DNA of 64,000 nt from Eledone cirrhosa (GCA_964016885.1 OZ024742.1:271932001-271996000), one strand, 5' to 3'. Shown: positions 13,909 to 54,729, numbered from the stretch's first letter. Translations and numbers: made by a program. The notes: generated by a model not told the origin, from the letters alone.

Positions 13909-14342
13909 TAATAATTACTATTATTATTGTCTCAAGTTTTAACAAAATGTTTAATTCCAATTTTACGGGAATATCTCAACATAGATATTAAACATACGCG
14001 ACACAAACGCATAGATACTACATATCAAAACAAAACTGGTCCACTCAACAAAACTCAGTAACGACAACGCCACCACCGCCACCACTCCATCCATCATTGC
14101 TACCACCACTATTCCCCTGTTAACTTAAGAAAGGGGAAGGTGGCGGTATCACTAGACAAGGGAGAGGCTAGCAAAAGATATAAATAGATTTACTTAGTGA
14201 CCTGGCCACCGGCTAAACGTCAACAACTATGGCACTGCTGGCTCCCCCCTTCCTCACCAACAATATAAAAAGCCCCAGCACCACCATCGACATAGCCAAC
14301 AACAATAACAGGCAACTTCAGCAAAAAGTATATTATATTATT

Positions 14343-14389
14343 GTAATGCACTGGGTGATTGCTGGCCTTGTGCCTGGAGTGGAGACACT
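14343..14389 (+). mobile_element. 3'-tail fragment of the SINE inside the Dong-A leader
   Basis: GTAATGCACTGGGTGATTGCTGGCCTTGTGCC.. followed by TTATTATTA. Confidence 0.7.
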
Positions 14390-18420: not shown

Positions 18421-18421
<1 letters not shown>

Positions 18422-18457
<36 letters not shown>

Positions 18458-30348: not shown

Positions 30349-30775
30349 CATTACGAATGTAAGATGGTAAATGTGGGTGAGGGGTTCAACATGTTGACAT
30401 TCAATTGAATTCACTTGGTTAAAATTAGAAACAGAAAATGTTCTTACAATACAAAACAGTGATTACCTGGAATAGTTTATATGTGTGTCGGTGGGTGTTA
30501 AAGTGAGATTAATTTAAGCTGAAATGTGAATTTATGTGTGGGTATAGAATTAATGTTTTATATTCTGGTATGTATGTCTGTGTTTTTACCCCTGGGATCA
30601 AGAAAACACAACTGATTTTTAGCGGTTTTAGAAAAAAACAAGGATAAATATATTTAGAAAAAAAAAAATGAAAATATAGATATAACATTGATTGAAAGAG
30701 GTTCTGGAAGGTGATGCAGAGATTGGGATCTTGGAGTATTTGCAAGAGAAAATAAATAATAATAATAATAATAAT

Positions 30776-33700
30776 GCTTTCTTTATTAACCACAAGGGTT
30801 TACATAAAGTAGACCTTAAGGACAGTACAGGACAATACAGAACGTACAAATGGGCATTTCTGGTGTAAAAAAACAAAAACAGAGGATGTAACAAAAGAAT
30901 AACAATGAAAAATTCCCCATACGGGGGAGACTTCGGAGGGACATTCGTGGAGAAAGCCCATTAAATAGCCACAGTGACCCTGACAACCAGGGCAAGTGCC
31001 CTCTCCCAGTTTTCCACCTTTAATTTACAGACACATACTCAGAGTAGGCCATTCTTGCCTCTCTCACCCATCTTTCAACAAAATGCTGGGAAGAGAGCAC
31101 TTCCGTCTCTACCCTGATTTTCCTTTTCAAATGAAATTTGAAAAGGTTAATCAGAGCAACATCGAAGAGGTAAGTGCTCGTCTTCAGCCCTTTCAAACGT
31201 GTCCACCATAATATCTATTTCGCCATGGCCACCAGACAGATGAAAAATTGCCTGCCCTGCCCGGCTAAAGGAAGGGGGCGGGGCAATCCTCACGATGGAC
31301 TCAGCTGATAGCTGGATCCGTCCTAAACGCGACAGCAGGTGTTCGACATAAACCCACAAGTCAGCAATGCTCGGACACTGGACGAGTACGTGCAGGACGG
31401 TTTCGTCGCCCTGCTCGCATCTCAGACATGCCCGGCTGACGGCACCTCCATGCCTGTAGTGTTTATCCTGAACTGGCAAACCTGCTCGGTAGCACTGCCA
31501 GGCCAGAGATTTCTGAAAGTTGTCCATAGGGCCCGGCCCTAAAGTTCTTCCGAAGAGTTGGCTAGTTGATTTTCGTCGACACCTAGAGTTTCACCAAGTA
31601 GGTCGTCGCTCTTCCCCTCCACTAATCCTCTACAGAAAGCCAAGGTGGAGTTTCCACCGATCACATTGCCCGATTGGTCGAGGGCTGTGAGCGCCTGAAG
31701 ACATTCCAGTCTCCAAGCGCTCCCTCTCGGGCTTCGCTTCACCCAGGACAGCAGCTCCGTCAAGGAGACGAGCTGGGGAAAGACGCGTCTAGCAAACGGC
31801 GACCACACCTGAGCACCGTCGAGGAAGAGGTCGTAGCCTGAGCGCGTGTCTGGGCATCATCAGCAACGGCTTGCCCAGCCGTCGACGTAGCGTGTAATGA
31901 CAGCAGATGGACTGCCTGACCATCGGAGCGCGTCCCTTCCACAAAAAGCGAAAGAGCAAACGCTCCAGCGCAATCAGGGGGGGCTTAGGACAAGTTACGA
32001 TGGTCAGGCGGTAGTAGATCACGGACGCGATGTACGCGTTAGCCACCTCCGTTCGACCTTTCAGGGATAGCTTCCTCTCCGCCCATTTCTGGGTGAGAGA
32101 AGCCACCCTGCTCGTCACTTCGTCCCAGTTTTTTTCCGTTTGGAGGTCCGGACCGAAACAGACCCCTAGCAATTTAACCGGTCCGTCCGTCCGGCGCCCG
32201 ACGAAGCTGTTGGACGGCATGGACCTGTCTCTCCAGGTACCTAGCTGCAGGCCCACTGACTTTTCCTGGTTGATCATTGCTCTTGAAACCGCTCCGTATT
32301 CTCTCAATATAGTGCCGATCCCCTCGATGTATTTGGCGTTCGACACCTCTACGGTGACATCGTCCGCATATGCTGAAACGGATCTTCCGCATCCTAGTTC
32401 GCGCGGTATCCCCCTCAACGTCTCCATGTTGTGCAGTAATGGCTCGATAGTCTATACGTACAAGAGGGACGAGAGGGGACATCCCTGGCGGATCGAGCGG
32501 ACTTAAAGGTGACCGTTCACTCTCAACACAGAGCACATGTCGCTGTGCATGGCAGCGATCCAGCCTCTGAAGACGGGCCCAAAGCCAGCCACCCTCAGGA
32601 AGCCACTAGGTAAACATGGTCGACCCTATCGAAAGCTTTCGACTGATCTAAATTGATAAAAGACCCACCGGTGCCAGGTTCCCTAGCTAGCCTCCCTACG
32701 ATGTATCGCATGAGGTGGAGGTTGGCGTGCATTTATCTGTCGGGAATGGCGCATGTCTGCGCCTCTCCCACCAGACAACCAACAAGCGCCAACCTCTTTG
32801 CTAGCATCTTGGCCAAAATCTTGAACTCTGTGTTTAGCAGTGTTATGGGCCTAAAATTATCTATGTTATCCCCCTTGTTCGGATCCTTTCTCAGCAGCGC
32901 CACAGCTCCTCGGCTCACAGAGCTGGGAATTCTCCTTTTCTGTTGCCAGTTGCAGTAGACGTCCGCCAAGAGGCCCCCTAACAAGTATGGCATATGTACG
33001 TAAAGTTCATAAGTCAGACCATCCAAACCTGGCGATTTAAGGCTTGTGCAGCCAGTCATTGCCTCCCGTACTTCAGCGGCTGTTATCGGCTTTTAGCAAC
33101 ACTCCGCGTCAGTGGGCGAGAGCCTCGGCAGTCTTATCGGTGTAGACACTAACGTCCACCCCTCGATCCGGCCCGCCGATGCCCCCGAACAGTTGAGCGA
33201 AGTGTCGCTGAAAAGCTTCACACATTTGCCCGGGATTGAGTAGCATGCGCCCGTCGTGGTCCAGCAAAGACAGGATCGGGGCTTTGTTGCCACGACGCAC
33301 CTCCGCCACTCGGGACCATTGAACGGCTTTCGTCCGCTCGTGTCTGAGAGCACCCAACCTAGCTCTGACAATGAAGCCTTCGTCCTTTGCATTGAAGAAT
33401 TGGTCATGGGCGAATTTCTCGGCAAGTACGTCGTTCGCGCTGCCTTTGCTAAGCGCCTCGTCTAATGTTCTAACTAGATCTCCATCTGCTCTATTTTCCT
33501 CTATTGCTAAAGCCTTACTAAACCCAATGGACTCTATTCTAATCGCTCTTTTCAGAGCAAACCACCACTTGTTGTTGACGAGGACCCGTCAACGGCCGCT
33601 TTACTAATTTGCTAATCCTGTCTCTGTAGACCTTACGCCCTGGTAAGGACGCGTTTGGCTTCCAGTAGCCGGGTCTTCGTCTATGAAGCCTATCTAAGTC

Positions 33701-36575
33701 AAGCACACAGATCACGAATTTGTGATCCGTGTAGCTGATTATCTTGAATTGTGGACAGCCTATGCTAGACCTATCTATTTCCCTACAAAATACTCTATCT
33801 AGATATGATCTGGATGACCCTATGCGATTTGTACAAGTCCAGATTGGCACATTCGGGAAATCTAATCGGTACCTATCAGACAATTCAAAACGCTTGAGCA
33901 GTTTGGTGAGGCTCATGCACACTCCTCCCCTATCCGCTAATCCCACACAGTCCTAGTATGCATCTAAGATCCCCTTCCAGTCGCCCACTAACACTAAAGG
34001 TCTCCAGACGCCAGAAGAAATCACGCCGCCCTGCTCCTGTTGGAGCATAGACGGCCAGTAGCCTGAAAGTTTGCACGTCTCCGCTGGTCACGTCTAGCGC
34101 CACCAACTTACCTTCTGGGTCCAGGAAGATGCCCCGTATGGCGAGATCCAAACCTATCCGAAAAACCACAGCAACTCCGCCCCCCGATCCAGGACGTACA
34201 CATGATGCGTACACTTCATAGCCGCCGAAGATCGGTGCGAAGGCCCGTGCTTCGGAGATTCTGGTCTCGTTGATGGCCACTATATCTATGTTTAGTGAGC
34301 TAAGGTCGTTGAGCAGGTGGCCCTGCTTCCATGACGACCCCAAGCCACGCGCATTTATGCTGCCTATTTTGAGTGAGGTCCTGTTGAAATGGAGTGGAAA
34401 ATATGGGAAAGACCACTTACCTTACTTCTCTTAGAGGATGGATGGTTTCTCCATACTTTTGACTGCTTGTGGCCTCCTCCGGAAGGATGTCCTTATAAAT
34501 CCTCCTGGAGAGTGCTTGTCGGAAGTCTCCGATGTCTTTGGGGAATTTTTGTTTTAGTGTCATGTACGTTTTCTGTGTGATGCGAGTGATTTGTATGTGT
34601 GGAGGTGGTGTGAACTTTTGGCGTGTTGTGTAGTCTTCTTCTGTGATGCTGGTGTTGTGTTGGATGTAGTGTAATAGTTGGTTGTTGTTCAAATTTAATC
34701 CTGTGTAGTGTGTATCGTTTTGGTTGTTTTGTTTTGTTTGCGTTTGTTGTGGGTTTGTTTGTTTCGCTTTTTGGAGACTTTTGTGGTTATTGTGATGGTG
34801 GTGTTGGGGTTTAATGATGGTGATAGTATTGGTGTTTGTGGTGCTGGGGTTGGTGATGCTAGGTGTGGATGGTGGCATAACTTTTTAGTTTGATAGTTTA
34901 ATTTTTTCCCTCTGTATTTTGTTTTTGGAGGGTGAAGGAAGGGGATTTTTACTTTTTTGGCATCTTTATTTATTTTTTTCTGATACAGTTTCCCACTCCT
35001 CGTTGTCACAATATATCTCCAGTTGCGATAGGTCGGGTAGTGGCAAATACTCCTCAGGCGTTCGTTTTGTTTGTGGCGTGCTGTATGGTGGGGCGCTGGT
35101 GCTAGTTCTGGCGCGTTGGGTGGTGGTTGTGTTGGTTTTGCTACTGTTGCTGGGTTTGTTACTGCTACAGTTGCTTCTGTTGATTCTGCTACAGTTGCTG
35201 CTGCCATTTCTGCTGCTGGTGTTGTTAATGGTTGAGTCACTGTGTTGGGTAAGAGAGGTGGCCTCAACTGTTTAGCCTGAGGGCAGAAAGATTTTAGGTG
35301 GGTTCATTCACCACAAACGACACACCTAGGCCTTCTACCCTCGACGATTACGGTGAAGTGGCTGTCGTCAGTGAGGTCTATTACCTCCGGGATTACCTCA
35401 ATGCTTTTTTGTTTAGCTTGCATCAGGAACTCCATCCCAGGTCCGGACCAGTTCTCCTGCTTTTCTTTTCATATTTCAATTATTTTGGTGTTGGGCTCCA
35501 TGCCGGCGAGGACGGCATCCATTAGCTAGGAAATTTCGATGGCCAGTGGAACGTGGGTCAACCTGATCTTCACGAGTCTCTGGTCACAATAACTTGGGAC
35601 GAGTGTGAAGTCGTCGCTTCTTAATGGGGCCATGTAGTTCTTTCTGGCCTCCTGTGGTGTTCCAAAGAACACGTCCACGATTCCATATTTCTGGCCACAT
35701 CTGATATGGGGTTTTTTCGACCACACATGTGCCAAAGATTTTTGGATTTGGGACTCGGATGACCGATCCACTCGGCGCGATTTTGTATTAATCGTCCGAC
35801 AAGACACGGTGCATAGGCGCCGATGCTCCATTTTATTAGGTGTGTGTGTGTTGGAGGGGGGCTGACCCTGTCCCAATCTTTCTTTACCATTCTCTTGGCT
35901 TCATTTAATTCCTCCTGATTTACCTCGATTGTTTCGCATTTCTTGGCTTCTTTGAACGACACATTTGCGGTGGTGTTGATTGTGTTGCTGTTGTTGCTGT
36001 TGTTGTTATTGTTATTTTTGTTATTGTTATTTTTAGTTTCAGTTGTGGTGGTGGTGGAGTCAGTGGTGTTCGGTGTGGAGGAGTCGATTATGAGTGAATC
36101 CATTTCGATGTCACGAGATAATCATTTATTTTTTTCTTTTGTTTCTGTTGTCGCTGTGGTGGTGGTGGGGGTGTCGGCTTTAACACCTGAAGTTATTGGT
36201 AATGGCGGGAAATGAATGTCTGCAAGAGACAAATTTAAATTATTGCTACTGCTTATATTTTTAGTGTTAGCAAACCTAGTAATATTTACAATGTTGGTGT
36301 TGGTGTGAGGTGTTAGTTTGTGAGGAAGGGGGTCAGCTTGGTGTGGCTGTGAGTCGTCCATGATTTTTTCAAAGAAATGTTTTGTTTGATAATTATAAAA
36401 GTTTTAATTTTGGGCTCAAGGCCCCAATTTTTTTGAGTGTCCTTTTCAGAAAGTAATATAAGTGAACTTATAAACACTTAACAACAAACATTTTCCGTAA
36501 ATGGCAATTTGAACCAACAGAAAACAACAACATTTTACGGAGCTCACGATAATACGATTTCATACGTATGTCGCC
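30776..36575 (-). mobile_element. Full-length Tx1-clade LINE, subfamily A copy 2, flanked by (TAA)n; frameshifted
   Basis: Collinear with 7780-13496; same GGCGAC 5' end; YADDV RT motif; knuckle CVVC..THLKSFC; 79-aa uORF at 36122-36361. Confidence 0.93.
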
Positions 36576-36650
<75 letters not shown>

Positions 36651-39555
36651 CATTTTATAATGTATTATAGATTTTGTATTCAAAAAGAAAATGGTTTTAA
36701 ATGGAAGAAAACCCCCTCTGTCTACACTATATAGAACAGCCAAATAACAGCAATTTCACCAACATCAGAAACTAGATACACCACCTACCGCATCACCCCT
36801 CTGTGTACACTAAACACAACAGCCCGATAACGACAATTTCACCACCACCACCACCACCAATCTCAGCATAATAATAATAATTACTATTACTATTGCCTCA
36901 AGTTTTAGTTTTAACAAAATGTTTAATTCCAATATTATGGGTAAATGTTAACACATATACGCGAGTAACGAACATTTCACTAAAGATAATTTCACGACCA
37001 ATACCACCAACACTACCACGATGAAAACCCTAGTCAAGTCGACTCAAATTTCTACTCGAACTTCAACACCATCACTACAGTAATACGACCACATCACCAC
37101 CACCGCTGCCTCACTATCGCTACCGCCGCTATTCTCTCCCACTACCTCCTGCCAGTTGCTGCTAGCACAGCACCGCCACCGCCGCCGCTGCCTCAATATC
37201 ACTTCCGCCGCTATTCTCTCCCGCTGTCCCCTGCTACATTGTAGAATTCCCACTAAAAGAGGAAAACATCAAAATATATAAATAGACTGAATTGATGACC
37301 TGGTCAAAATAAAAAAAAAACAATCAAAATCAAGTTTTAGTTTAAAAAAAATGTTTAATTCCAATATTATGGATAAATGTCAACACATATACGCGACTAA
37401 CGATAATTTCACTAAAGATAATTTCACCACCAATACCACCACCACTACCACGATGAAAACTCTGGTCACGTCGACTCAAATTTCTACTCCAACTTCAACA
37501 CAATCACTACAGTAATACGACCACATCACCACCACTGCTGCTTAACTATCGCTACCGCCGCTATTCTCTCCCACTACCTCCTGCTACTTGCTGCTAGCAC
37601 AGCACCGCCACCGCCGCTGCTGCCTCAATATCACTACCGCCGCTAATCTCTCCCGCTATCCCCTACATTGTAGAATTCCCACTAAAAGAGGAAAACATCA
37701 AAATATGTAAATAGACTGGAGAAAAAAAATCAAAATCAAAGCAGCACAGCAACAACGAAAAACATAAAGGAAATAAAAATGAAGAGAAAAACAAACGGAC
37801 GGACAGAGAAGAGAAGGGAAAAACTAAGTCAGACATTCAAACACTACATTACAATGAAACTTATGCTTATTCATTTTTTGGGGTTTTTTCTGCCTGTTTG
37901 TTTGTTTGTTTGTTTGGGTTCGTCTACAGCGTGATAATGCCACACAAAAGTCACGTGGAGTGACGAAACCACCGGAGACAAGTAATTCACCGGTGGTTAT
38001 GTAACCATACATTCGCCAATCCTGGATAAGAGTGTTTAAATGTCGTACCTAAACAGTTCGAATAACGGTGAAATGGAGACTAGAATGTCATGTGACAGAC
38101 TCTCACCCAACAGGTGATCCCTGGCTCAGCAACATGGGCCTGGCTGTCAAACAAATACTGCTGGTGTCGGTGGAAGAAGAAGAAGGAAAGGGACCAGAAC
38201 CAACTGGACGAAAGAATTGAATAGAACTGTTATGCAATGTTACCTGAAGAGTAACCCCAAGGAGAAAGGCTATAGGAAAAGGATGCATAACATCTGGAAC
38301 GAGATTGGTCCATTTAAATTAGATGAACAAAAACTGGCCGGGAAGGCTCGGGTAATAAGAACTAATGGGTGGATAAGCGAGCTGGAACTGGAGGAACTGG
38401 GCAGAGAGATTAGCTTGGAGATGGAGGGTGGGGTAAGCCAGGCAAACGAGCCAGTGGGAAATGAAGGTGAAGAGGTCGAGAGAACGGAGGAACCACCCGA
38501 AACAGACAATGATCTGAATGCTGAGATAAATAATACCTGGAACAGAGATACGGCCACTGAGGAGATGAATGCTGACAGGCTAGGACAAGATTTGGTAGAT
38601 ATCCTAAACTTAGTGGTAGATGAATTGAACAATGATAGTGGGAGACCTATGAACCTAAGATTTGTAGACAGGAAAAAGTTAAAGAAACAACAGCTAAGGT
38701 AAACAAAGTCATCCCATACCTTGAGGCGAGGAGCCTTCACCAGTGCAACAATATCCTCAAAGCAACAGCAAATACGGTGAGGAAACTACTTGGTATAAAA
38801 GCGAGAGCAAACAACAGACAAGAAAGTGCAGAGCCTTGGTGGAAGAAACGACTGAGTGGTCAAATCAGGGAAATGAGAAATGACTTTGGAAAGCTTGAGT
38901 CCCTACTGAATGGGACACTAAAAAATATAGACACTAAAAATAGACTGGAAATAAAGTACAAAACTAGGAGGAAAAAGCTAAATATTATCATAGAGGAACT
39001 GAAGCAACGCATTGTAGCAAAGAATGCAAAAATCTGGCGATACGAGAACAGAGTCAGCCAGTATAGACAGAACCGCATATTCGACAACAACCAGAAGATG
39101 CTGTTTGAACAGCTTGAAGGGAAAGAAAGAGGCAACGACTTGATCCCTGAGGCTAAACAAACTAAAACATTCTGGAGAGGAATGTGGGAGCAGGATGTTA
39201 AACATAATGGCCAGGCAGTGTGGATTGAGACAGTACAGAAGGAGATCAGTGAACAGGCACGCCAATTAACCGATACCAGGACTTAAAGTGGGCGCTAAAA
39301 AGGATTTGGAACTGCCATGAAGTCAAAGTGGTCCCGATTGTCATAGGCGCACTAGGTACTATCTCAAAAAGATTCAGGGATGGTTAAAGAAAATTGGCCC
39401 CTTCACGCTTTTTGGAACGCTTCAAAAGGCATGCTTGCTGGGAACAGCAAGAACCCTCCGATACGTCCTGAATATCTGTGCTGCAGGTAGTGGCTTGATA
39501 TTCATTTCAACAAAATTTCCAGTTAACTAACATCAGTGACTGAGACTCAAAGAAC
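36651..39555 (+). mobile_element. Dong/R4 LINE subfamily B, internally deleted, with a ~430-bp tandem duplication in the leader
   Basis: Near-identical to 43522-48284, but at ~39263 it jumps from the equivalent of ~46008 to ~47994 (RT and most of the RLE lost); leader duplication at 36898 and 37331. Confidence 0.9.
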
Positions 39556-39594
39556 TATAATAATAATAATGATAACAATAATAATAATAATAAT

Positions 39595-42500
39595 CATTTC
39601 ATTTATTAGCCACAAGGGCCGACATGTAGGGCACAATACAAGGACAGGGCAGTGGGGGTTTACAATAAGGTCGAGTAAAATTGAACAATGGCAAGACTAA
39701 GTTAACAATTAGGATATAAAATAAACTATGCATAAAAATAATAAAATAAATTCCCCGATAGGGTGTGGACGACCCTGGTGTGACTCGGGTACCGCACCAA
39801 TCCTGAACCACCCTGCACTTCTAGGGGACCCAGGGAAAGCACCCCTCTTCTCATGATAGCTAACCTATAGGCGCGTGGTCAGAGAAGGCACATTCACACG
39901 AGCCATTCTCGTCACATTCACCCACATTTTAGCAAATGTACTGGGGGGCAGCACTTCTCTCTCCACCCTCACCTTCCTTTCCAGGTGAAACTTGAAGAAG
40001 TTGATGAGGGATTGGCCGAAGAGAAGAGTGTCTGTCTTCAGTCCTTTTAAACTGGTCCACTATATAACCTCTTTCGCAACCGCCACCAGACATAGGAACA
40101 TTTCCTGCTCTTCCTGACATGAGGAAGGCGGTGGGTCGATCTTCACTATGGACTCGGCGGATAGCCGGATTCGTTCCACACGCGACAGTAGCTGTTCGAC
40201 ATAATTCCACAAGTCAGTAATGCACGGACATTGGACAAATGCGTGCAGAACGGTTACGTCGTTCAGTGCGCATCTTGGGTAAGTCCGTCTGACAGCACTT
40301 CCGTGCCTGTAGAGTTTATCCTGAACAGGCAGAGCCCCCCGGTAGCACTGCCAAGCGAGAGATTTCTGGAAATTGTCCATTTTCCCCGGCTCAAAATTCC
40401 TCCGGTACAGAATGGTCAGTTCGAGATCGTCGAGGCCCAAAGCCTCTCCGAGTGCGTCATCGCACTTGCCCACCATTAATCCTCTATAGAACTCGAGAGT
40501 AGAAGTTCCCCTGATCGCATTGCCCGCTTGGTAGAGGGCAGTGAGTGCCTGGCAACATCCCAGGTGCCAATCACCCAGTCAAAGAAATGAGCTGCGGAAA
40601 GGCACGTCTGATAAACGGCGACCACACCTGTTCACCGTTGATACAGAATATCTGGAGATGTCGCAGCCTCAATGCATCATTAGCCACGGCATACCCAGCC
40701 CTCCGCGTAGAGGGTGCTGGAGCAGATGGACCGCCTCACCAACGGAACTTCTCCCCTACACAAGAATTTGAAGAGGAGTCGTTCCAACTTGACGAAGCGC
40801 GGACGGGGGCAAGGCATGACGGTCAGACGGTAGTAGATGACGGACTCGATGTACGCATTTGCCACCTCCGGGCGACCTTTCAGTGATAGCTTCCTCCCAG
40901 CCCATTTTTGGGTGAGACTGGCTACTCTGCTCGTTACCTCGTCCCAATTCTTTTCCACCTGGAGGTCTAGTCCGAACCAAACCCCGAGCAACTTTACCGG
41001 CCCGTCCGTCCAGTTCCCCACGACGCTGCTGGACGGCATGTGCTTCCCTCTCCAGGTTCCGAGCTGCAAGCCCACCGACTTTTCTGGGATTAGTTTGGCT
41101 CCTGTCAACCTTTCATATTCCTTCAATTTCTGAGGTGTTCGACACCATCACGGCTGTGATGTCGTCCGCATAAGGCGACACCACCTTTCCAAGTCACGGT
41201 TAGAACGGGATGCCCTGCAACAGCTCCAGCTTCCGCAGTAAAGGCACGAGACTCAATACGTACAGAAGGGAAGACAGAGGGCACCATTGACGGACCGATC
41301 GGGAGGGCCGAAATGGTTTCGAGAGGTGGCCATTAGCCTTGACCACCGAACGTGTGCCGCTGTGCATTGCAGCGATCCAGCTTCTAAAGACAGGGCTGAA
41401 GCCAGCTGCTCTGTGGACAAACTCCAGATATCGATGGTCGATCTATGGAATGCTTTCGATTGATCTAAATTGATCAGTGCCCCACCGAAGCCAGGTATAC
41501 ACCCTGCCCTCTCTATGATGTATCGCATGAGGTGGAGATTGTCGTGTATGGACCTGGCTGGGATTGCGCAAGTTTGCGCCTCCACAACCAAATCCTCGAC
41601 GACAAGCGCCAATCTTTGTTAACACCTTGGCCAAAATCTTAAACTCTGTTTTGAGCAGAGTTATGGGCCTGAAGTTGTCTAATGTATCCCTCTTGTTCTC
41701 GTCTTTCTTTATCAGCGTCACCCCACCCCTGCTCACAGAACTGGGAATACTCACATTCTGCTGCCAGTTGCAGTAGAGTGCTTCGAGGAGATGGAAGAAC
41801 AAGTCTAGCATATTTACGTAAAGCTCGTAGGGAAGGCCATCCAAACCGGGTGAATTGCCCCTCATGCAGCTGACAAGGGCATCCTGAATTTCGGCTGAAC
41901 TAATCGGCCTTTCGCAGCGCTCAGCGTCGACCGTCGAGATGCGCGACAAGCCGTCAAGGTAGGGACTGAAGTCCGCTACTCTCTCTGAATCGCTTATCTC
42001 GTGTCCATCTCGGTTCGCCAAAGACCGAATTGTTTTTTATTACCACGCTGCACCTCCGCCACGCGGGCCCATCTAACAGCTTTGGTTCCCTCGTTTCTCA
42101 GCGCACGCGCCTTAGCTCTGACAATGCAACCTTCGTGTTTCGCATTGAAGAAATGGTCTAATGCCATTCTCGACGCTAGCACGTCAGTTGCCATGTCACT
42201 ACAAATAGCCTCGTCTAACTTATCTACCAGCTCCCCCTCCTTTCTATTTTTCTCTAACGCTAGTTCTTTGCTGAACTCTATCGAATTTACTCTAATCTCT
42301 CTTTTGAGAGCCCCCCACCATATGTTGTAGATGATCCCCCCTCTCAACTTTTGCTTAACTAAATTGTTGACTCGGTCCTTGTAAGCCCCAATGCCGGAAA
42401 TGACATGTTCAGCTTCCAGTAACCCAGTACCAACCTACGCGTTTTATCTAGGTCGTCCGTACAGATCTCAAATTTGTTATCTGAATAGGCGACAATTTTA

Positions 42501-42753
42501 AAAAGTGGGCAACCCACACTATTTCTATTTATTTTCGTGATGAAGATCCTGTCTATATACGATCTAGATGACCCCTTTCGGTTGGTGCATGTCCCAACTG
42601 GCATATTGGGGAATTCTAATCGATACCTGTCAGACAGGTATCCTTACCTCGAGATCCAGTCCTTTCCTAAGCCGCACTGCAACCCCCCCCCCCATTCCCG
42701 GCCTGCTAACAGATACGAAGATCTGCTGACGGCAATCACATCCATTCTGTAGC
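39595..42753 (-). mobile_element. Tx1-clade LINE subfamily B, 5'-truncated within the APE domain
   Basis: SYIDR, GYWKLN, SPGLDGLPYE, NFRPITLL, LDQSKAF, YADDI and FQKSLAWQCYRGALPV; 3' end CCCTTGTGGCTAATAAA followed by (TTA)n. Confidence 0.9.
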
Positions 42754-43487
42754 AAAAAGCTACAGAAGGAATGTTAATGGCTGCGCAAGAGCAGGCCATC
42801 AAAACGAAGCGGGTAAAACACCATATTTACAAGGAGGAGGCTAGCCCACTGTGTAGAATTTGTGGAGAGAGAGAAGACTCTGGCTCACATTATATCCGAG
42901 TGTAAACACCTAGCCCAGGCTCACTATAAAGGCTGGAGACATGATGTGATGGGAAGGGTGATCCACTGGCACCTATGCGAAGTAAACAATTTACCACGTT
43001 ATGAGCATAAGCCAGCGTCGGTGATTGAAAACGATCAGATGAAGGTGCTATGGGATTTTAGCATACAGACGGAGAAGAAATTAGAACACAATAGACCTGA
43101 TTTGGTGGTTTTAGACAAGAAAAAAAGATCATGCCTGATTGTAGATGTAGCCTGCCCATTTGACACAAGAGTGCAAGAAAAAGAGAGGGAGAAAATTAAC
43201 CGATACCAGGACTTAAAGTGGGAGGTAAAAACTATTTGGAACTTCCATGAAGTAAAGGTCGTCCCGATTGTCATCGGTGCATTAGGTACCATCTCAAAGA
43301 GATTCCAAGGATGGTTAAAGAAGATTAGTCCAGCCCCACTTTTGGGAACACTTCAAAAGGCATGGTGCTGGAAACAGCAAGAACCCTCCGATACGTACTG
43401 GATATCTGAGGCTGCAAGTAGCGGCTTGATATTCATTTCAACAAACTTTCAAGTTAAATAACATCAATGACTGAGACTCCAAGAATA
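42754..43487 (+). mobile_element. Dong/R4 subfamily B 3' fragment (CCHC plus RLE)
   Basis: ORF 42862-43461 has HIISEC, RHD, RPDLVV, DVACPFD and KINRY; TAA-rich tail. Confidence 0.9.
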
Positions 43488-43521
43488 CTAATAATAACAG
43501 TAATAATAATAATAACAATAA

Positions 43522-46500
43522 GAAGACGCAGGAGGTGGTAGAAGGTCATGAAATCGCTCCCGTAAGTTTTGATTTTTTACCATTTTTAAATCATTTGTGG
43601 AATAACAACTCTTAGTACAAATGCTACGTAAAGCATCCGGCTTGAACCCCAAACAAATTCGGACCCAAAGTATATTGTTATAAGGCTCAAATATTCAAAT
43701 ATTCAACTTTGTATTGTACATTGTATATTCAAAAAAGAAAATGGCTATAAATGGAAGAAGAAGAACCCCCCCTCCTCTGTATACACTATATAGAACAGCC
43801 AAACAACACCAATCTCACCAACACCAGAAACTGGATACACCACCTACCCCGTCACCTCTCTGTGTACACTAAACACAACAGCCAGATAACGGCAATTTCA
43901 CCACCACCACAACCAATCTCAACATAATAATGATAATAATAAATACTATTATTATTGTTCCAAGTTTTAACAAAATGTTTAATTCCAACATTAAGGGAAT
44001 TTATGTCAATACATAGATTCACCAAACGGACATCAGTAACGACAACGCCGCCCATCCATCATTACTACCACTATCCCATCACCGCCGCCACCACTCCTTC
44101 ATTGCTACCACCGCTACAACACCATCACTACAGTAATACGATCACATCACCACCACCACTGCCATCATTACTACCACTATCCCATCACCGCCGCCACCAC
44201 TCCTCCATTGCTACCACCGCTACAACACCATCACTACAGCAATACGATCACATCACCACCACCACTGCCTCAGTATCGACATCACCACCACCACTGTCTC
44301 AGTATCGCTACCGCCGCTATTCTCTCCCATTGGTTCCTGCTAGTTGCTGCCACCACATTATAGAATTCCTACTAAAAAAGAGGAAGGCATCAAAATATAT
44401 AGATAGACTCAAAAGAAAAAAACAAACATCAAAACCAAAGCAGCACAGCAACAACAGCAAAACAAAAGAGAAAAACAAACAGAGAAAAACAAAAACAGAA
44501 AAAAACGTAAAGAAAATAAGAATGAAGAGAGAAACAAGCGGACGGACAGAGAAGAGAAGGGAAAAACTAAGTCAGACATTTGAACACTACATTACAATGA
44601 AACTTATGCTTATTCATTTTTGGGTTTTTTCTGCCTGTTTGTTTATTTGTTTATTTGTGTTCGTCTACAGCGTGGTGATAATGCCACACAAGAGCCAAGT
44701 GGAGCGGCGCAACCACCGGAGACGGTGAATCCACAGATGGTTATGTAACCATACATTCGCCAATCCTCGATAAGAGTGTTTAAATATCGAACCTAAACAG
44801 TTCGAATAACGGTGAAATGGAGACTAGAACGTCATGTGACAGACTCTCACCCAACAAGTGCTCCTTGGCTCAGCAGCAGGAACATGGCTGTCAACCAAAT
44901 ACTGCTGGTGTCGGATGAAGAAGAAGAAGGAAAGGGACCAGAACCAACTGGACGAAAGAATTGAATAGAACTGTTATGCAATGTTACCTGAAAAGTAACC
45001 CCAAGGAGAGGGGCTATAGGAGACGGGTGCATAACATCTGGAACAAGATTGGTCTATTTAAATTAGATGAACAAAAATTGGCCGGGCAGGCTCAGGTAAT
45101 AAGAACTAATTGGTGGATAAGCGAGCTGGAAATGGAGGAACTGAGCAGAGAGATTAGCTTGGAGATGGAGGGTGGAGTATGACAGACAAACGAGCCAGTG
45201 GGAAATGAAGGTGAAGAGGTCGAGAGAACGGAGGAACCACCCGAAGCAGACAATGATCTGAATACTGAGATAAATAATACCTGGAACAGAGATACGGCCA
45301 CTGAGGAGATGAATGCTGACGGGCTAGGACAAGATTCGGTTCACATCCTAAATTGAGTGGTAGATGAATTGAACAATGATAGTGGGAGACCTATGAACCT
45401 AAGATTTGTAGACAGGAAAAAGTTAAAAGAAACAACAGCTAAGGTAAACAAAGTCATCCCATACCTTGAGGCGCGGAGCCTTCACCAGTGCAACTATATC
45501 CTCAAAGCAACAGCAAGTACGGTGAGGAAACTACTTGGTATAAAAGCGAGAGGAAACAACAGACAAGAAAGAGCAGAGCCTTGGTGGAAGAAACGACTGA
45601 GTGGTCAAATCAGGGAAATGAGAAATGACATTGGAAAGCTTGAGTCACTACTGAATGGGACACTAAAAAACATAGGCACTAAAAATAGACTGGAAATAAA
45701 GTACAAAACTAGGAGGAAAAAGCTAAATATTATCATAGAGGAACTGAAGCATCGCATTGTAGCAAAGAGTGCAAAAATCAGGCGACACGAGAACAGAGTC
45801 AGTCAGTATAAACAGGACCGTATGTTCGACAACAACCCGAAGATGCTGTTTGGACAGCTTGAGAGGAAAGAAAGAGGCAACGACTTGATCCCTGAGGCGG
45901 AAGAAACTAAAACATTCTGGAGAGGAATATGGGAGCAGGATGTTAGACATAATGACCAAGCAGGGTGGATTAAGACAGTACAGAGGGAGATCGGTGAGCA
46001 GGCACACCAACAAACTGATTTGAGTATCACAGTTGAAACTCTTAAGGGGCAGGCCAAAAAACTAACCAACTGGAAATCACCAGGCCCAGATGGTGTGCAG
46101 GGGTATTGGATTAAAAATATAACATCCCTCCACCCGAAACTGACAACCACGTTCAATGACTGCTTGATGTCAGGTGAGGTACCAGAGTAGTTGACAAAAG
46201 GTACCACAGTTCTGATAATGAAAGACCGAATCAAGGGTAATGATGTTACCAACTATAGACCTATCACATATCAGTCCGTAATGTGGAAACTGTTGACGAG
46301 CATTGTGTCTGAGGAAATTTACCATCACCTCCACACAAACAACTTGTTACCGGACGAACAGAAAGGATGCCGAAAGAAGTCACGTGGTACAAAGGACCAG
46401 TTACTTATTGATAAGATGGTAATGGGCAATTGCAGGAGGAGACACACTGATCTTGCCATGGGATGGATAGACTACAGAATGGCATTTGACATGGTGCCTC

Positions 46501-48284
46501 ATTCTTGGATCACCAAAAGCCTGGAGATCTTCAAGCTGGCAGATAACATCAGACAGTTGTTGGGCAAGAGTATGAGGTCCTGGGAAACAGAGTTGACATC
46601 AACTGGAGAATCCTTGGGAAGCGTGAAGATCAAGAGTGGTATCTTCCAGGGAGATAGCCTGTCCCCTCTGTTGTTTGTCCTTGCCCTGATGCCCCTGACC
46701 AGTGTACTGCGAAAAAGTGAGAGCATGATACGGTTGGGAAAGGGAGGGCTTACCATCAATCACCTCATCTTCATGGACGATCTTAAGCTCTTCGGGAAGA
46801 GTGAGAAGGAGTTGGATGTGCTTGTTGACACTGTCCGTATTTTCAGCAGTTATGTATGTATGCAGTTTGGTATTAGTAAGTGTGGAGTCATTGTGATGAG
46901 GAGGGGTAGGTTGAGCAGAAGTAACGGAATCCAGATACCAACAGGTGAGATGATAAAGGAAATTGACTCTGAGGAAGTATACAAGTATTTGGGCGTTCTG
47001 GAGGCTGATGGCATAAAGAACAAAAAAATGAAGGAATTGTTAAGAACTGAATACATTCGGAGAGTAAGGAGCGTATTGAAGTCACATCTGAACAGCAGAA
47101 ATGCCATAAGCGCAGTAAATTCCCGAGCTGTGTCTATTATTAGGTACATTGCGGGAATTCTGAGATGGAATGTTGCTGAACAAAAAGAAATGGATAGGAA
47201 GACTAGGAAGCTATTGACTATCTACAACATGTTCCACAAGAGGAGTGATGTCGATAGACTCTACCTAAAAAGATCTAAGGGTGGAAGAGGTCTTACCAGC
47301 ATAGAGGACTGTGTTCAGATGGAGAAAAACAACCCACACAAATACGTGACTGATGGTAAGGAGCCAATGTTCAGAACTGAACTGAAGGAAGGGACAATAG
47401 GCCAGGGGATGTCTAAGGAGGAAATAACATCAAGGAGAAAGAGCAGCCTTCAGGAAAAATCCCTTCATAGTACCTTCTTTGAGAAAACTGAATTTAGAGA
47501 TCCACAAACATGGAACTGGTTCAGAAGAGGAGACCTTAAAAAAGGCTACATAAGGAATGTTAATGGATGCGCAGGAGCAGGCCCTCAAAACGAAGTGGTT
47601 GAAACACCATATTTACAAGGAGGAGGCTAGCCCACTGTGCAGGATCTGTGGAGAGAGAGAGGAGACTGTGGCTCACATTGTATCTGAGTGTAAACACCTA
47701 GACCAGACCCACTATAAGGGCTGCATACATGATGTGAGGGGCAAGGTGATCCACTGGCACCTGTGCAAAGTAAACAATTTACCACATTATGAGAAATGGT
47801 ATGAGCATAAGCCAGAGGCGGTGATGGAAAACGATCAGGTGAAGGTGCTGTGGGATTTTAGGATACAGACGGACAAGAAACTGGAACACAGTAGACCTGA
47901 CCTGGTGGTTGTGTACAAAGAAAAAAGATCGTGCCTGATTGTGGATGTGGCCTGCCCATTCGACACGAGAGTGCAAGAGAAGGAGAGGAAGAAAATTAAC
48001 CGATACCAGGACTTAAAATGGGAGCTAAAAGGATTTGGAACTGCCATGAATTCAAAGTGGTCCCAATTGTCATAGGCGCACTATGTACTATCTCAAAAAG
48101 ATTCAGGGATGGTTAAAGAAAATTGGCCCCTTCACGCTTTTTGGGACGCTTCCAAAGGCATGCTTGCTGGGAACAGCAAGAACCCTCCGATACGTCCTGA
48201 ATATCTGACGCTGCAGGTAGTGGCTTGATATTCATTCCAACGGACTTTCCAGTTAACTAACATCAATGACTGAGATTCAAGGAA
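43522..48284 (+). mobile_element. Full-length Dong/R4 LINE subfamily B, flanked by (TAA)n; ORF disrupted
   Basis: 5' end GAAGACGCAGGAGGTGGTAGAAGGTCAT as in Dong-A; ORF from ATG 44817; RT ORF 46191-47630 (GIFQGDSLSPLLF, FMDDLKL); CRICGEREETVAHIVSEC; RLE motifs. Confidence 0.92.
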
Positions 48285-48309
48285 TAATAATAATAATAAT
48301 AATAATAAT

Positions 48310-51300
48310 GATTTCTTTATTGGCCACAAGGGCTGACATCAAGAAAAACATTACAGACGGCACAGGACGGTACAGGACGGTACAGGACGGTACGATGTGG
48401 GTTTTGTGCGTGTAAAGATGTTCATTATTTATATAAGAAAAGAAGAAACATGTATAGAAACATGTATATATATATATATATATACAATAACAAAATGAAA
48501 ATTGAAACAATGAAAACTTCCCCAATAGGGGGAAACCTCCGAGGGTTATTCGTGGCGAAAACCACGCAAAATACCACGGCTAATGTGACCACCAGGGCAA
48601 GCGCCCTCTCTCAATTTTTCCTTTTCTCAAACTACAGGCGTATATTCACTCGGACCATTCTCACTACATTCACCCACCTTTCAACAAACTTTCTAGAAGG
48701 CAGCATTGCCTCTCCACACTGATTTTCCTCTTCAAGTGAAACTTGAAAAAGTTAATTAGGGATTCGCCGAAGAGGAATGCATCTGTATTTAACCCTTACA
48801 ACCTTTTCCACTACACAATCTCTTTCGTCATGGCCACCAGGCAGATGAAAACCGCCTGCCCTTCCTCCTCAAAGGAAGACGGCGAGATCATCTGCACAAT
48901 GGACTCAGTCGATAAACGGATCAGTCCTACACGCGACAGCGACTGTTCGACATAGTTCCACAAATCAGCAATGCTCGTACACTGAACAAGCGCGTGCACG
49001 ACTGTTTCCTCGCTCTGCGCGCATCTCGGACATCCTCGGCTGACGGCACTTCCGTGCCTGTAGAGCTTATCTGAAACCGGCAACGCTCCCCTGTAGCACT
49101 GTCACGCCAGGGATTTTTGGAAGTTATCCATAGGGCCTGGGCTGAAAGTTCTCCGGAAGAGAGCAAACAGCTGATCTTCTTCAACGCCCGGGATCTCTCC
49201 GCGAACGTCGTCGCTCTTCCCCTCCACTAGTCCTCTACAGAAGGCCGAGGTGGATGTTCCACCGATACTGGTGCCCAGCTGGCAGAGGGCAGTGAGCGCC
49301 TGGAGACATTCCAGTTTCCAAGCTCTATCCCTCTGTCTTTTTCTGACCCAGGCCTGCAGCTCCGTCAAGGAGACGAGCTGTGCGAAAACGTGCCTGGCGA
49401 ACGGGGACAAAACCTGTTCACCGTCAAGGAATCTCCAGAGATGTCGCAGCCTCAGCGAATGTTTGCGCATTATCAGCCATGACATTCCCAATCCCCCACG
49501 CAACGGTGTTGACAGCAGATGGATCGTCTGACCATGGGAGCGCGTCCCTTCCACAAAAAGCGGAAGAGAGGCGCTCCATTTTGGTGATAGTTGGGCCGGA
49601 GCAAGGGACGACGGTGAGGCGGTAGCAGTGACGGATGCGATGTACGCATTCGCCACCGCCGCCCGGCCTTTCAGGGACAGCTTCTTCTCAGCCCAATTCT
49701 GGGTAAGGGAGGGCACCTTGCTCGTCACCTCGTTCCATCTGGAGGACCGGTCCGAACCAGACTCCGAGCAATTTAACCGATCCGTCCGTCCAACGCACCA
49801 CGACGCTGTCGGACGGCATGGACTTGCCTCTCCAGGTACCGAGCTGCAAGCTCACCGACTTTTCCTAGTTTATCTTTGCTCCTGTCACCGCTTCGTATGC
49901 CTTGAGAACGGTGCCGAGCATCTGTACGTGTCTGGTGCAAGAAACCACCCACCTACGTTACGTCGTCGGCGGAAGCCGACTCGGTATTCCCGCATCTAAG
50001 TTGCCCCCAGTTTGTGCAGTAACGGCTCGAGAGCCAATATGTACAAGAGAGACCAGGGGGTACAGTTCCAATAGACGTCTGCCAAGAGGTCACCGAACAA
50101 GTCTAGAATAAATGCATAAAGCTCGTTTGGAAGACCATCCAAACCTGGCGATTTACCCCTCGTGCAGTTAGCCATCGCTTCCCGTATTTCACCGGCTGTT
50201 AATTGGCTTTTCGTAACACTGTGATGTGGTCGTCGAGGGCCGAGGCAGTCCGTCGATTTATGCACTGAAATCCATACACCGATCCGGCTCGCCGCTGCTC
50301 CACAACATTTCAGCTAATTGCTGCCGAAAAGCTTCACATACCTGCTCGGGTTCACATATCTGCCTCTCCTAAACGCATTTTCTAGCTTTCTGACTAGCAC
50401 TCCCTCTACTCTATTTTCATCTATCACTAGTCCTTGGCTAAAGCAAATCGACTCTACTGTTATTGCCGTTTTCAGGGCGAACCACCACCTATTGTTGTAG
50501 CTCGCACCCGTCAGCGCCCACTTATCTAATACGCTAATCCGGTCCATGTTGGCTTTGCGTGCCGGGAAAGACGCGTTCAGCTTCCAGTAACCGCGTCCTT
50601 GTCTATGAAGTATGTCTATGGCGATCTCACAGATCACAAATTTGTGGTCTGTGTAGTCGACTATTTTAAATTGTGGACAACTTACACTAGCATTATTTAG
50701 TTCTATCGAGATACGATCCCTATCGAGATACGATCAGGATGACCCGATGGGGTTCGTCCATTTCCACATTGGCACATTCGGGTGATCTAGTCGATACCTG
50801 TCAGACAGTTCAAAACGTCTGAGCAGATTAGTGAGGCTCTTGCACGCTCATCCACTAGCCACTAGCTCCATACATTCCTAGCGTGCATCCAAGATACCGT
50901 TCCAGTCGCCCACTAACACTAATGAGCGGGACGTTCCAAGAAAGGTCTCTAGACGTCTGAAGAAATCTGGCTGTCCTGTCTCTGTCGGGGCATAGACGGC
51001 TACTAGCCTGAAAACGTTGCCTTCGGTGCCGCTTACGTCCATCACCACCGACTTACCTCCTGGCCCAAGAAGATGGTCCGTATGGCGAGATAGCTATCCG
51101 GGATAACTTCGATGCACTCCTGGTCGGTTTGAATTAACATCTCAATGGAGGCGACGTCCCAATCTTCTCGTACTATTTTCTGTACTTGCAGTACGGTTGT
51201 TTTGTCGTCGATTCCGACGAGGACAGACGCGGCCAGCCAAGAAGGGGCCATCCCTTCTTGGGTCAGTTTGACCCTCACAATATTTTGCCCGCAGTACAGG

Positions 51301-51594
51301 GCACCAACACCCTTTATTCGCTCCTTAGGATTACTAAGGATTGAGCCTTTGCTTCCTGGCGTGTGGCAAAAGCAACGGCCTCGGCGGCATATTTCTTGCC
51401 TCGAGTGATATGCGTTTTCCGCTGCCACACTGATACTAAGGCTTTTTGTATTTGAGCCTCTGTAGCTCTTTCAACCCTACATGATTTTGTGCTTACTGTA
51501 CGGATTTCGAAAAATTCTTCGGCTGCCTTCCAGATTGCTCGCTGTCCTGTTTTCGACACCATCTTCCTTGCTTCTTGTAATTCTTCAATTGTTA
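48310..51594 (-). mobile_element. Tx1-clade LINE subfamily C, multiply deleted, 5'-truncated in ORF1
   Basis: ORF1 remnant EELQEARKMV..RVERATEAQIQKAL; APE, RT and zinc-finger remnants; 3' end CCCTTGTGGCCAATAAAGAAATC followed by (ATT)n. Confidence 0.9.
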
Positions 51595-51600
51595 TAATAA

Positions 51601-54600
51601 GACGTGAAATGGATGGAAATAAGTTGGCAAATGTAAGGAGGTATATCTTCAGAAATGATAGACTCACAGACACTGAACTAACTGCGATCAAGCAGGCTGT
51701 GAAGATTGTAACCAGTCATAAGTCATTACTGAAAGACCTCCATCCTACCAAATCACAAATAGGTTTGTAGAAATGAGAAGCCATATTGAACCCGCTGGAA
51801 ATAGCCAGGAAAGAGACTTAGAAACAGTAATTAAAAACCAAACATCTGCTGAAGAACACAGGGAGACTATGAAGGAATTAAAGCAAATAATACTGAATGA
51901 GATTGCAGTAGTAAGACATTCTATTATAAATGGTAGAGAACCACTTCAAAAACTCCCAAATACAATCCAAAATAGAAAACAAATAATGATTGGTAATTCT
52001 GTGACCAAAGAAATCATAGAAGAACTAGAAGCTGATCTTACTGAGTTAAATGAAATCATTTATGCATGTGCTAGCGTAATTGAAAGAAGATGTTTACCAC
52101 CGAGAAAACAAAAAGAAGTCGAACCTTCGAGGTAAACCAATTTGGAGGAGTAGAATCGAAAGGGAGATTGACGTAATGAGAGGAGAAATATCTTTATTGA
52201 GTGAGTTAACCCCTGGAAATGATATAATATCGGAGAAGGTAAGAAAACTAAAGAGAAAATAAGGACTGTCTTCTAGAGAAGCAATTGTTTCAACAAAAGA
52301 ATCTCTGAAACAGAAAGTCCAAGTAAAAGCCCAGAAAACTCGTAGATTCGAGAAGCGAAACAACTTCTATGAGCAAAATAAGTTGTTCTCATCCAATGCC
52401 AAGTCATTTTATATAGAAGTAGGGAAGAAAAAAATAATAATTGAAGATCCCCCGTCCATAGAAGAAGTTGAAAACTTCTGGAGTAAGATTTGGAGTGATG
52501 AGAAAACATATAATGCTAATGTAGATAGGATTAGTCGCCGGGAAAAATCTTACACAAATTTAGAAGAACAGGCGTGGGAAGACATCTCTATAGCGGACTT
52601 AAGAAGAGCACTCATTAATTCTCATGAATGGAAATCTCCTGGTAGAGAAAAGGGTGCCACATTTCTGGTTTTTCTCACTCCCGTGCAGACACAATATATT
52701 GGTCAAGCTGTTTAATAGAATTATGAAAGATCGAAAAAATACACCTGATTGGATAGCAAGTGGCATTACCTAGCTTCTACCAAAGAACAACGAAACCAAA
52801 GATTCCAAAAAAGCTTCCTGAAACAGAATATGTCATTATGGAACAAATCTCCAATTGTCTCATTCCACTGGGGTACTCCGCTCTAGGAATATAATCATCA
52901 ACTGTGGTATATTACAGGGTCACTCTCATTCACCCTTGCTTTTCTGCATAGCTTTAATACCCCTTACACCCGAGCTTAATAGAACAGGGTACGGTTATAG
53001 AATTGACAACAAAAAAATAAGCTATCTAATATATATGGATGATTTGAAGCTATATTGCAAAGATAATGACGAACTGGAAGGCATTTTGGGGACAGTAAAA
53101 ACATTTAGTGATGACATCAGGATGGAGTTTGGACTTGACAAGTGTGCAAAAGCCACTTTCAAAAAAGGCAAGCTTGTCAACTCAGACTGAGTTGAACTGG
53201 ATGCTGAAACAATCATAAAGGAGCTTGAGCAGGCACAAACCTATACATACTTAGGGATCAATAAGGGCCCTGGCATACAACATGCAAGTATGAAAGAGAG
53301 GATCAGGAAAGAATGTTACAGGAGAGTACGTGGAGTTCTGAGATCAGAACTAAATGTGCGTAACAAGGTGTTAACCACAAATTCCTTGGCATTCTCAGTT
53401 GCACTTATAGATTCGGTGTGTCGAATTGGAATATGAGTGAAATCAAAATAATAGACACCAAAGTCCTATAATAGGATGCACCACCCAAACGCAGATGTGA
53501 ATCGTCTTTACCTTGCCAGAACTCAAGGAGGCCATGGCCTGATCAATTTGAACTTGCTTATAAGACCACCATCATTGGACTGGCCAAATACCTTGAAACA
53601 ATTTACGACAGTATGCTGAAACTTGTTGAAAACCATGGGAGAAGTAAGAAGCTTAATTCTATCTTGAAGGTGAGCAAATAATATGCTACTGATCTCATGC
53701 TTGATACCCAGGCAGAAAGACTAAAAAACTGTTGCAACTGATGCTGCTAGGCACATGAAATCACTGGCAAATGCAAAAGGACAAGGACAACTATCATCAA
53801 ATTGGGAGCAGAGACCTCTGGATGGCAAATATGTGTTAGTTGCAAACAAGCTGATGTTGACCAAAACCACACATATGAGTGGCTACGTAGTTCAGGGATA
53901 AAGGTGGAGAGTGAAGGCTTCATCTTAGCTTCCAAGATCAAATCTTATTGACGCGTAATTACCAGGCCAATGTGATGAGAAAGTGCCAATTCAGCAATGC
54001 TGGGGTTGAAACAATGGACCACTTAGTCTCTGGATGTATAGTTTTACCACCAGTAGAATACAAATATAGACATGACAGAGTTGGCCAATATATTGACTGG
54101 GTAATATGTCGGCATTACGACATCAAAGCTGAAGACAAGTGGTACAATCATCACCCTGACGCTGTAACTGAAGGAGAACATGTAACAATTCTCTGGGACT
54201 TTCCTGTAAATACTAACAGGACCATAAAAGCAAATAGAGCTGAATTCATTATAAAAGATCAACATAACAAGGTCTGTTAGTTGATAGATATGAGCATCCC
54301 ATGTGATCACAATATCGCGGCAAAAGTATTTGAAAAACTACGAAAATATAAAGATCTGCTTATTGAAATTGAGTTAATGTGGCACCTCAAGGCCGTTACA
54401 AAACGAGTGATTGTGGGAGGACTGGGAATGATCAAGAAAGGAACAGAACAATATTTGCGAATGATTCCTGGTTTATCATCTCTGCACGAGGTGCAAAAAA
54501 TTGTTTTGGCTGGTACTGCAAACGTATTAAGAAGAGAACTATCTCTGTAAAATTGATATCCCTCTTTGTATTTAAATATGCATATGCACATGTGTATATA

Positions 54601-54729
54601 TGTATACTTTTTTTTCTTGTTTTAATTAGAATCAATGTCCTGTATTAACTGGCTTACCAATGCACACTGTGAATATCATTTGCCCTAGGTGTCAGGAAGA
54701 CACTCGTCATATATCTCAGAAACAATAAT
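51601..54729 (+). mobile_element. Dong/R4 LINE subfamily C, 5'-truncated and degenerate
   Basis: NKLANVRRYI (compare Dong-A NKLANIRRNI), WKSPG, GILQGHSHSPLLF, YMDDLKL, RHD, KLRKYKDL; ends CAGAAACAATAAT. Confidence 0.9.

Follow-up and report, generated by a model that had tools for sequence, protein, structure and literature searches.

Three Tx1-like LINE families with an APE-type endonuclease and three R4/Dong-like families with an RLE-type endonuclease occupied (TAA/TTA)n tracts in opposite orientations in the window, which is the whole 64,000-nucleotide stretch of Eledone cirrhosa DNA that was analysed and belongs to a 379-Mb contig of a 3.0-Gb genome. The opposite polarity was real, and it was a rule across the genome sample and no local oddity. 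We consider it probable that each class primes on its own strand, and that independent insertions which regenerate the repeat produced the mixed stacks. The three subfamilies foreseen for each clade were recovered as Tx1A, Tx1B and Tx1C, and DongA, DongB and DongC.

Layout of the arrays and identity of the two LINE classes

The region 30775-54729 consisted of seven LINE copies of differing age, three Tx1-like (APE) copies on the minus strand and four R4/Dong-like (RLE) copies on the plus strand. Self-BLAST, ORFs and Pfam matches gave the order Tx1(-), Dong(+), Tx1(-), Dong(+), Dong(+), Tx1(-), Dong(+), in agreement with the original prediction of a 24-kb array (Table 1). The copies differed by 3-13% from their respective family majority. 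The first DongB copy carried an internal duplication (36898-37289/37330-37718) and a ~2-kb internal deletion at ~39270. The full-length DongB had a ~1.28-kb 5' UTR and a single RT-CCHC-RLE ORF, interrupted in this copy, and 42642-42725 was further Tx1B sequence beyond the internal deletion. The TAA linkers that had been claimed were found at 30757, 36578, 39558-39593, 43489-43521, 48285 and, as a minimal TAATAA, at 51595-51600, while the Tx1B/Dong junction at ~42725-42754 had no TAA. All five Tx1 3' ends in the window ran into (TTA)n, as had been proposed. The same claim for six Dong 3' ends and the TAA repeat held for five; the copy ending at 54729, a DongC, was clipped at AATAAT within its own 3' UTR, and most other DongC copies extend past that point into an A-rich stretch and then (TAA)n. 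A (TTTAATT)36 tandem array lay at 54979-55234, 250 bases right of the array end.

Table 1. Coordinates of the LINE copies, repeat linkers and related features in the window
Position	Strand	Feature
1582..1775	+	SINE, last 45 bases like Tx1 3' ends; Tx1 polarity within arrays
1795..2840		Third, strand-inverted pair: Tx1A(+) 1795-2704, (TTA)5, DongC(-) 3' end
7761..18457		Second array: (TAA)5, Tx1A(-) 7776-13496, (TAA)8, DongA(+) 13523-18421, (TAA)12
13523..13986	+	5' UTR segment common to DongA and DongB; older version, 79% to 43490-44018
30757..30774	+	(TAA)6, left array end; (TTA)n tail/target of Tx1A
30775..36577	-	Tx1A, full-length APE-type LINE; ORF1 and APE-RT ORF2, both broken; ~6% from family majority
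36578..36649	+	(TAA)24 linker separating Tx1A and DongB 5' ends
36650..39556	+	DongB copy; 5' UTR without first ~190 bases
39557..39593	+	Imperfect TAA linker, DongB/Tx1B tail-to-tail
39594..42725	-	Tx1B, 5'-incomplete, with internal deletion
42754..43488	+	DongB-like copy, 5'-truncated; 87% to family majority; 5' junction without TAA
43489..43521	+	Imperfect TAA linker, Dong/Dong head-to-tail
43522..48284	+	DongB, full-length RLE-type LINE; 97% to family majority
48285..48308	+	(TAA)8 linker, DongB/Tx1C tail-to-tail
48309..51594	-	Tx1C, 5'-truncated with internal deletion
51595..51600	+	TAATAA, minimal 2-unit linker
51601..54729	+	DongC, 5'-truncated; 3' end clipped short of normal terminus and repeat

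The array was not unique. The strand-inverted tail-to-tail pair was confirmed at 1795-2840, and the head-to-head pair said to recur was present at 7776-18421. However, the two head-to-head pairs held different Dong families (DongA at 13523, DongB at 36650). Segmental duplication was rejected as their source, the window Tx1A copies being independent: they had 4 common derived variants per kb vs 51-59 own differences. A further stack of ~23 kb was located some 80-100 kb upstream of the window, and the flanking 200 kb contained more stacks and was enriched in these LINEs (32.0 and 20.1 kb per 100 kb vs 58.6 kb per 800 kb of an evenly spaced sample). Across 271832001-272096000 (264 kb), where these LINEs were 3-4x as dense as in the evenly spaced stretches, six of seven stacks had TAA on the plus strand, with 20 TAA vs 2 TTA tracts. 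This strand bias, which was not significant by stack count, possibly has an unseen host gene as its source.

Domain architecture supported the predicted pairing of an APE-type with an RLE-type LINE. The minus-strand copies gave APE, RT and zf-RVT matches, and the plus-strand copies gave RT followed by CCHC and a restriction-like region. Tx1 had two ORFs, ORF1 (P0003) and ORF2, the latter matching Exo_endo_phos (7.8e-14), RVT_1 and zf-RVT. Its APE domain matched L1 endonuclease structures, and the APE homologue search returned one match. The named Tx1 homologues came from Argonauta (67%) and from frogs and fish (35-40%), and included 'Transposon TX1 uncharacterized 149 kDa protein' (30%); with the Argonauta protein the closest of those named, an octopod host is probable. 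For Dong, an intact 1140-aa open frame (P0001, at locus L123) matched Pfam RVT_1 and had no Exo_endo_phos match. Its best PDB matches were R2 proteins over residues 414-1101 (E 6e-30), with L1 matches over the RT only, and an RLE (PD-(D/E)xK) motif, read by eye, lay C-terminal with the CCHC. None of the 120 Dong homologues among the matches listed had a clade name. The names Tx1 and Dong are probable assignments resting on architecture, homologue names, target and motifs rather than on a tree.

Polarity of insertion across the genome sample

Seven genome searches were carried out, each drawing on 1,234-2,379 candidates, of which 40 were scored and the best 30 kept. Removal of the window's own copy left 29 anchored loci per search, so that the anchored sets represent the top 29 of 1,200-2,400 candidates each. 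A flank was called when at least 4 repeat hexamers fell within 34 bases (44 for DongC). Either repeat call was obtained for 83-100% of the anchored 3' ends and full-length 5' ends vs 0.96% of 100,000 random 34-base windows.

Among the best 29 loci of each search, 78/87 Tx1-like 3' ends were at (TTA)n (Tx1A 26/29, Tx1B 24/29, Tx1C 28/29), and 56/58 Dong 3' ends were at (TAA)n (DongB 29/29, DongC 27/29). The full-length 5' ends followed TTA in 28/29 Tx1A loci and TAA in 26/29 Dong loci. The Tx1 figures for full-length 5' and for 3' ends both exceed the >20% target-preference criterion given in the accessible part of PMC4494074. Reversed polarity was found at none of the anchored 3' and 5' ends in these loci, so the prediction of one (TAA)n target shared with opposite Tx1 and Dong polarity was borne out, and the anchored copies were not of mixed polarity.

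The other 5' ends inside these loci were mostly truncations. TTA preceded 26/52 of them for Tx1 (Tx1A 14/20, Tx1B 6/13, Tx1C 6/19), and TAA preceded 31/39 for Dong (DongB 18/20, DongC 13/19). About one third to two thirds of the Tx1 5' ends that were not full-length had no repeat, some of these being alignment breaks at reference deletions. TTA tracts also preceded the 5' ends of two more groups, with 10 and 7 flanks, which L196 and L144 connect to Tx1B and Tx1C. The Dong and Tx1 truncation points were scattered and still often preceded by repeat; since they fall at scattered positions, the upstream repeat is not element-encoded. Because full-length and many truncated 5' ends obeyed the same polarity, the repeat is a target and not only a tail.

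The evenly spaced sample comprised 80 stretches of 10 kb (800 kb) from contigs C1-C5, C7 and C28 only. In this sample, TAA adjoined young Dong copies at 11/13 5' ends and 15/16 3' ends, with a single 3' end called TTA; for young Tx1A copies, TTA was present at 5/7 5' ends and 7/7 3' ends. Older, more distant Tx1-like matches mostly had no repeat (1/19 5' ends with it).

Some distant relatives were flanked by other repeats. At L182:2428-2870 and 7960-8005, (CTAT)n took the place of (TTA)n beside remoter Tx1-like copies that had the same 3' motif. A distant Dong-like family, 33-41% to DongB and represented by two copies only (L161:2300-5155; L167:4800-6200), had (CATA)n ahead of its truncated 5' ends and short (CATA)n past its 3' ends. 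A recurring ~50-base sequence with an A-rich/TAA end came after these distant Dong-like copies, and was also seen in L103, L152 and L276.

Stacking and probable growth of the repeat

The orientation of neighbours joined by a repeat linker was counted over all loci. Tx1-Dong pairs were antiparallel in 61/63 cases and parallel in 2/63, while pairs of the same clade were parallel (Dong-Dong 65/66, Tx1-Tx1 22/23). The SINE, which showed Tx1 polarity, was antiparallel to Dong in 45/46 pairs and parallel to Tx1 in 49/51. The stacks look like the result of independent serial insertion. The proposal that the array grew by accretion was supported; mixed neighbours were antiparallel and copy ages differed.

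It could be argued that Tx1 and Dong cooperate, pairing preferentially and co-regulating each other from head-to-head promoters, since Tx1 meets Dong at five of the six junctions in the window array and the window holds two head-to-head pairs. However, the LINE neighbours were 24 Dong and 15 Tx1 for Tx1 anchors, and 29 Dong and 15 Tx1 for Dong anchors. The suggested excess of Tx1-Dong adjacency was therefore not found (Fisher p=0.82; p=0.22 on a smaller set). Full-length 5' ends facing the other clade made up only 5/29 Tx1A and 3/29 Dong loci, and the idea of divergent promoters received no support. As the class of the neighbour was independent of the anchor, the near-alternation in the window needs no pairing mechanism, and we regard cooperation as very unlikely.

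On the other hand, the stack may be the product of segmental duplication, template jumping or mis-assembly, with the repeats being only tails. In favour of this, no short-read contig or RAD read spans the stretch, 7753-13986 is similar to 30751-36959 over 6 kb, and one junction has no TAA. Against duplication, the copies were only 72-89% identical to each other, with few shared derived variants, and their flanks differed. Template jumping cannot produce antiparallel neighbours, and the presence of repeats ahead of 5' truncations at scattered positions argues against the repeats being only tails. Mis-assembly is opposed by the recurrence of such stacks in the flanking DNA and among the evenly spaced stretches, and by low-depth short-read contigs, possibly from the source sample, that matched the window copies with 0-1 differences. 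We give this explanation almost no weight.

For independent insertion, net regeneration of the TAA repeat is likely. The claim that each insertion regenerates the target drew support from linker length, the linkers having a median of 11 units (n=109) vs 4 for free tracts (n=27; p=2.6e-7; the two classes were measured differently), although long tracts simply attracting insertions may be the source of the difference. Site occupancy did not contribute to the claim. In the evenly spaced sample, 15/30 sites with tracts of at least 5 units held one or more of these LINEs, with 15/8/4/2/1 sites holding 0-4 LINEs after one 5'-inverted copy was merged by hand. A geometric model was barely better than a Poisson model (log-likelihood -38.7 vs -39.3; dispersion p=0.07), so that occupancy did not separate the two.

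A convincing non-pure target duplication was found for only 2/35 two-ended Tx1A copies (L028, L169) and for no Dong copy; duplications within pure repeat are mostly invisible to the search. The 'informative' duplications scored by script (11/35 Tx1A, 12/52 DongB) were largely one-base overhangs and were discarded. Short-read contigs and RAD reads contained no interpretable empty allele.

The SINE was abundant (16.6 kb of 800 kb) and formed tandem copies. In shuffle tests, its last 45 bases matched the ends of all three Tx1 families (p 0.001-0.002) but not those of Dong (p 0.055-0.65). Of its 73 two-ended copies in all, 31 had a non-pure shared flank, which in 16/31 started with ATTAT. Together with the two Tx1A cases and the longer linkers, these duplications suggested repeat regeneration. 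ARAGORN found no tRNA in the window, which lends no support to a tRNA origin of the SINE.

Probable priming strand, known systems and the shared Dong 5' UTR

In the target-primed model, priming is from the strand antisense to the element, which would be the TAA-reading strand for Tx1 and the TTA-reading strand for Dong. By this model, the Tx1 APE would nick the TAA-reading strand at a T/A step, a Tx1 RNA ending in (AUU)n without poly(A) would be primed at the nick, and the second cut would fall after ATT on the opposite strand. The Dong RLE would nick the TTA-reading strand and prime an RNA ending in (UAA)n, and the Dong 5' end would be resolved imprecisely. A usable tract could then be left on each side by target duplication, by slippage and by repeat units brought in with the RNA. 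The SINE, with its Tx1-like tail, likely rides the Tx1 machinery and would seed new ATT sites.

The Tx1 3' ends consisted of AATAAA, a few bases and then ATT repeats. The full-length Tx1A 5' junction ended in ATT in 17/18 blunt cases, while the truncated Dong 5' junctions had no fixed phase (TAA 6, ATA 5, AAT 2 of 13). The ATT phase and the poly(A)-less tails of Tx1 would fit cuts at T/A steps. Among 84 ends listed, the first Dong tail units were inherited by subfamily, 16 of TAACAA type following one DongB diagnostic end and 25 of CAATAA/CAACAA type following the other. It follows that the Dong RNA carries repeat, and this keeps alive the view that annealing of the tail sets the polarity.

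According to that view, cleavage of AT-rich DNA by the endonucleases is loose and can fall on either strand, and the orientation is set by annealing of the RNA 3' repeat, which is AUU in Tx1 and the SINE and UAA in Dong. The CAA-containing first tail units tracking with DongB subfamily and the lack of poly(A) in Tx1 (0/142) are points for it. The SINE, which ends in ATTATT, also landed at non-microsatellite sites, where the shared flanks were of 10-30 bases and so often began with ATTAT. However, the constant ATT phase of Tx1A 5' junctions suggests that the second cut is a defined one. Tx1A 5' ends were far more often at a tract (28/29) than those of the SINE (about 1 in 8 among the evenly spaced stretches), and the accessible part of PMC4494074 ascribes target choice mainly to the endonuclease. 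We judge that tail annealing is somewhat improbable as the determinant of polarity; it could be combined with strand-specific priming, which we prefer.

Each ingredient of the system has precedent, and the combination is new rather than the mechanism. TAA-specific R4-clade elements, namely Dong, DongAg and DongBg, are described in the accessible parts of PMC3812793 and PMC3774820; the former places Dong among the APE elements, and the protein here is of RLE type. The elements in the window resemble Dong as described there in the single RT-CCHC-RLE ORF, the (TAA)n on both sides and the variable 5' junctions. They differ in that three families coexist, that A and B have a common 5' UTR, and that the tracts are shared with an APE family. 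While the accessible text of PMC3774820 assigns an HDV-like ribozyme to B. mori Dong, a loose scan of the Dong 5' end here with a home-made descriptor lacking a positive control gave 0 matches, there was none among the Rfam matches, and the DongA UTR had a fold z of -0.66. The variable 5' ends of R2 and Utopia (PMC4640811, accessible part) are a parallel for the lack of fixed phase at the Dong 5' junctions.

Microsatellite-specific Tx1 elements in the accessible part of PMC4494074 include Kibi at (TC)n, Koshi at (TTC)n and crocodilian elements at (TTCC)n/(TTTC)n. Tx1 here is likewise a two-ORF APE-RT LINE with a simple repeat at both ends, but its target, (ATT)n, is absent from the targets named there and overlaps that of an RLE family. 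Like SINEU with Tx1-Mar in the same source, the SINE shares the target preference of a Tx1 family and forms tandem insertions; unlike SINEU, it also shares LINE 3' sequence, and its target is ATTAT. The closest cross-clade precedent in the accessible literature is Keno (Tx1, APE) and Utopia (RLE), lineages that converge on one U2 snRNA gene site with identical 3' flanks (PMC4640811, accessible part). These two share one orientation in a low-copy gene, whereas here opposite strands of an abundant microsatellite are used, with mixed stacks over 20 kb. TRAS and SART also occupy one repeat in opposite orientations and form arrays in insect telomeric repeats (PMC10088271, accessible part); however, both are R1-clade APE elements at telomeres, and here two endonuclease classes occupy interstitial microsatellites. 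For Octopus vulgaris, the accessible part of PMC13282606 lists Dong-R4 and L1-Tx1 as recently active and also mentions hotspots; the word 'target' is absent from it. Our literature search returned no (ATT)n Tx1 family and no antiparallel Tx1/Dong arrays; subscription papers and Repbase, which were outside its scope, could list such a target.

The ~1.2-kb segment ahead of DongB proved to be the DongB 5' UTR in 29/29 other loci. It was therefore rejected as a separate element at 13523, 36650 and 43522, and it was rejected as a captured Tx1A 5' end since it had only low-complexity matches to Tx1A. In 4/29 loci, the same 5' UTR start led into DongA. Individual young DongA and DongB copies were nearly identical over ~400 bases, while their proteins were 39% identical over 646 aa and the ORFs gave no DNA alignment. 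The shared start occurs in an older and a newer version (window 13523-13986, 43522-44670; L096, L107, L109, L116, L129-L131), and the window DongA has the older one. From sequence comparison, repeated exchange of 5' UTRs, and with them promoters, between the distant RLE families DongA and DongB is likely. A comparable replacement of the 5' UTR is known for L1. At 14340-14400, the DongA 5' UTR held sequence resembling the SINE 3' end together with a short TTA run, and the DongA copies in L071 and L132 begin at this point after a TAA tract. The point may mark a former 5' end or a hotspot of truncation.

Antiparallel sharing of one microsatellite by an APE LINE, an RLE LINE and a SINE is widespread, the Tx1 and Dong families with their relatives covering 7.3% of the evenly spaced 800 kb. 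One microsatellite would then organise a good share of the LINE content in this genome, a point of relevance to LINE hotspots and (AAT)n markers. Because both endonuclease classes use the same DNA in opposite directions and an intact Dong frame (P0001) exists, Tx1 and Dong form a natural comparison for the question of whether strand and orientation in target-primed insertion are dictated by the endonuclease or by the RNA tail. More tentatively, at a little under even confidence, the APE and RLE lineages may partition the strands of one microsatellite by strand-specific nicking and, with a Tx1-dependent SINE, form a self-amplifying landing-pad system that takes up several percent of a 3-Gb genome; head-to-tail stacking would allow 5' promoters to pass between distant Dong families, and sister families would have shifted to the repeats CTAT and CATA.

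Other elements were seen in the window. Further Tx1-like fragments, at 62881-64000 (+) and 22081-22423 (-), had ~70% identity to Tx1A and no visible TTA tract. A Penelope-like element with inverted termini lay inside (TA)n at 28631-30221; it had a GIY-YIG-like ORF at 29136-29807, read by eye and without Pfam match, and its termini carried short TAA runs, beside which Dong copies end in L055 and L186. A degenerate Penelope-type RT-like frame, also read by eye and without Pfam match, was found at 58449-58901 (-), and the region 56-60 kb was strongly G-skewed.
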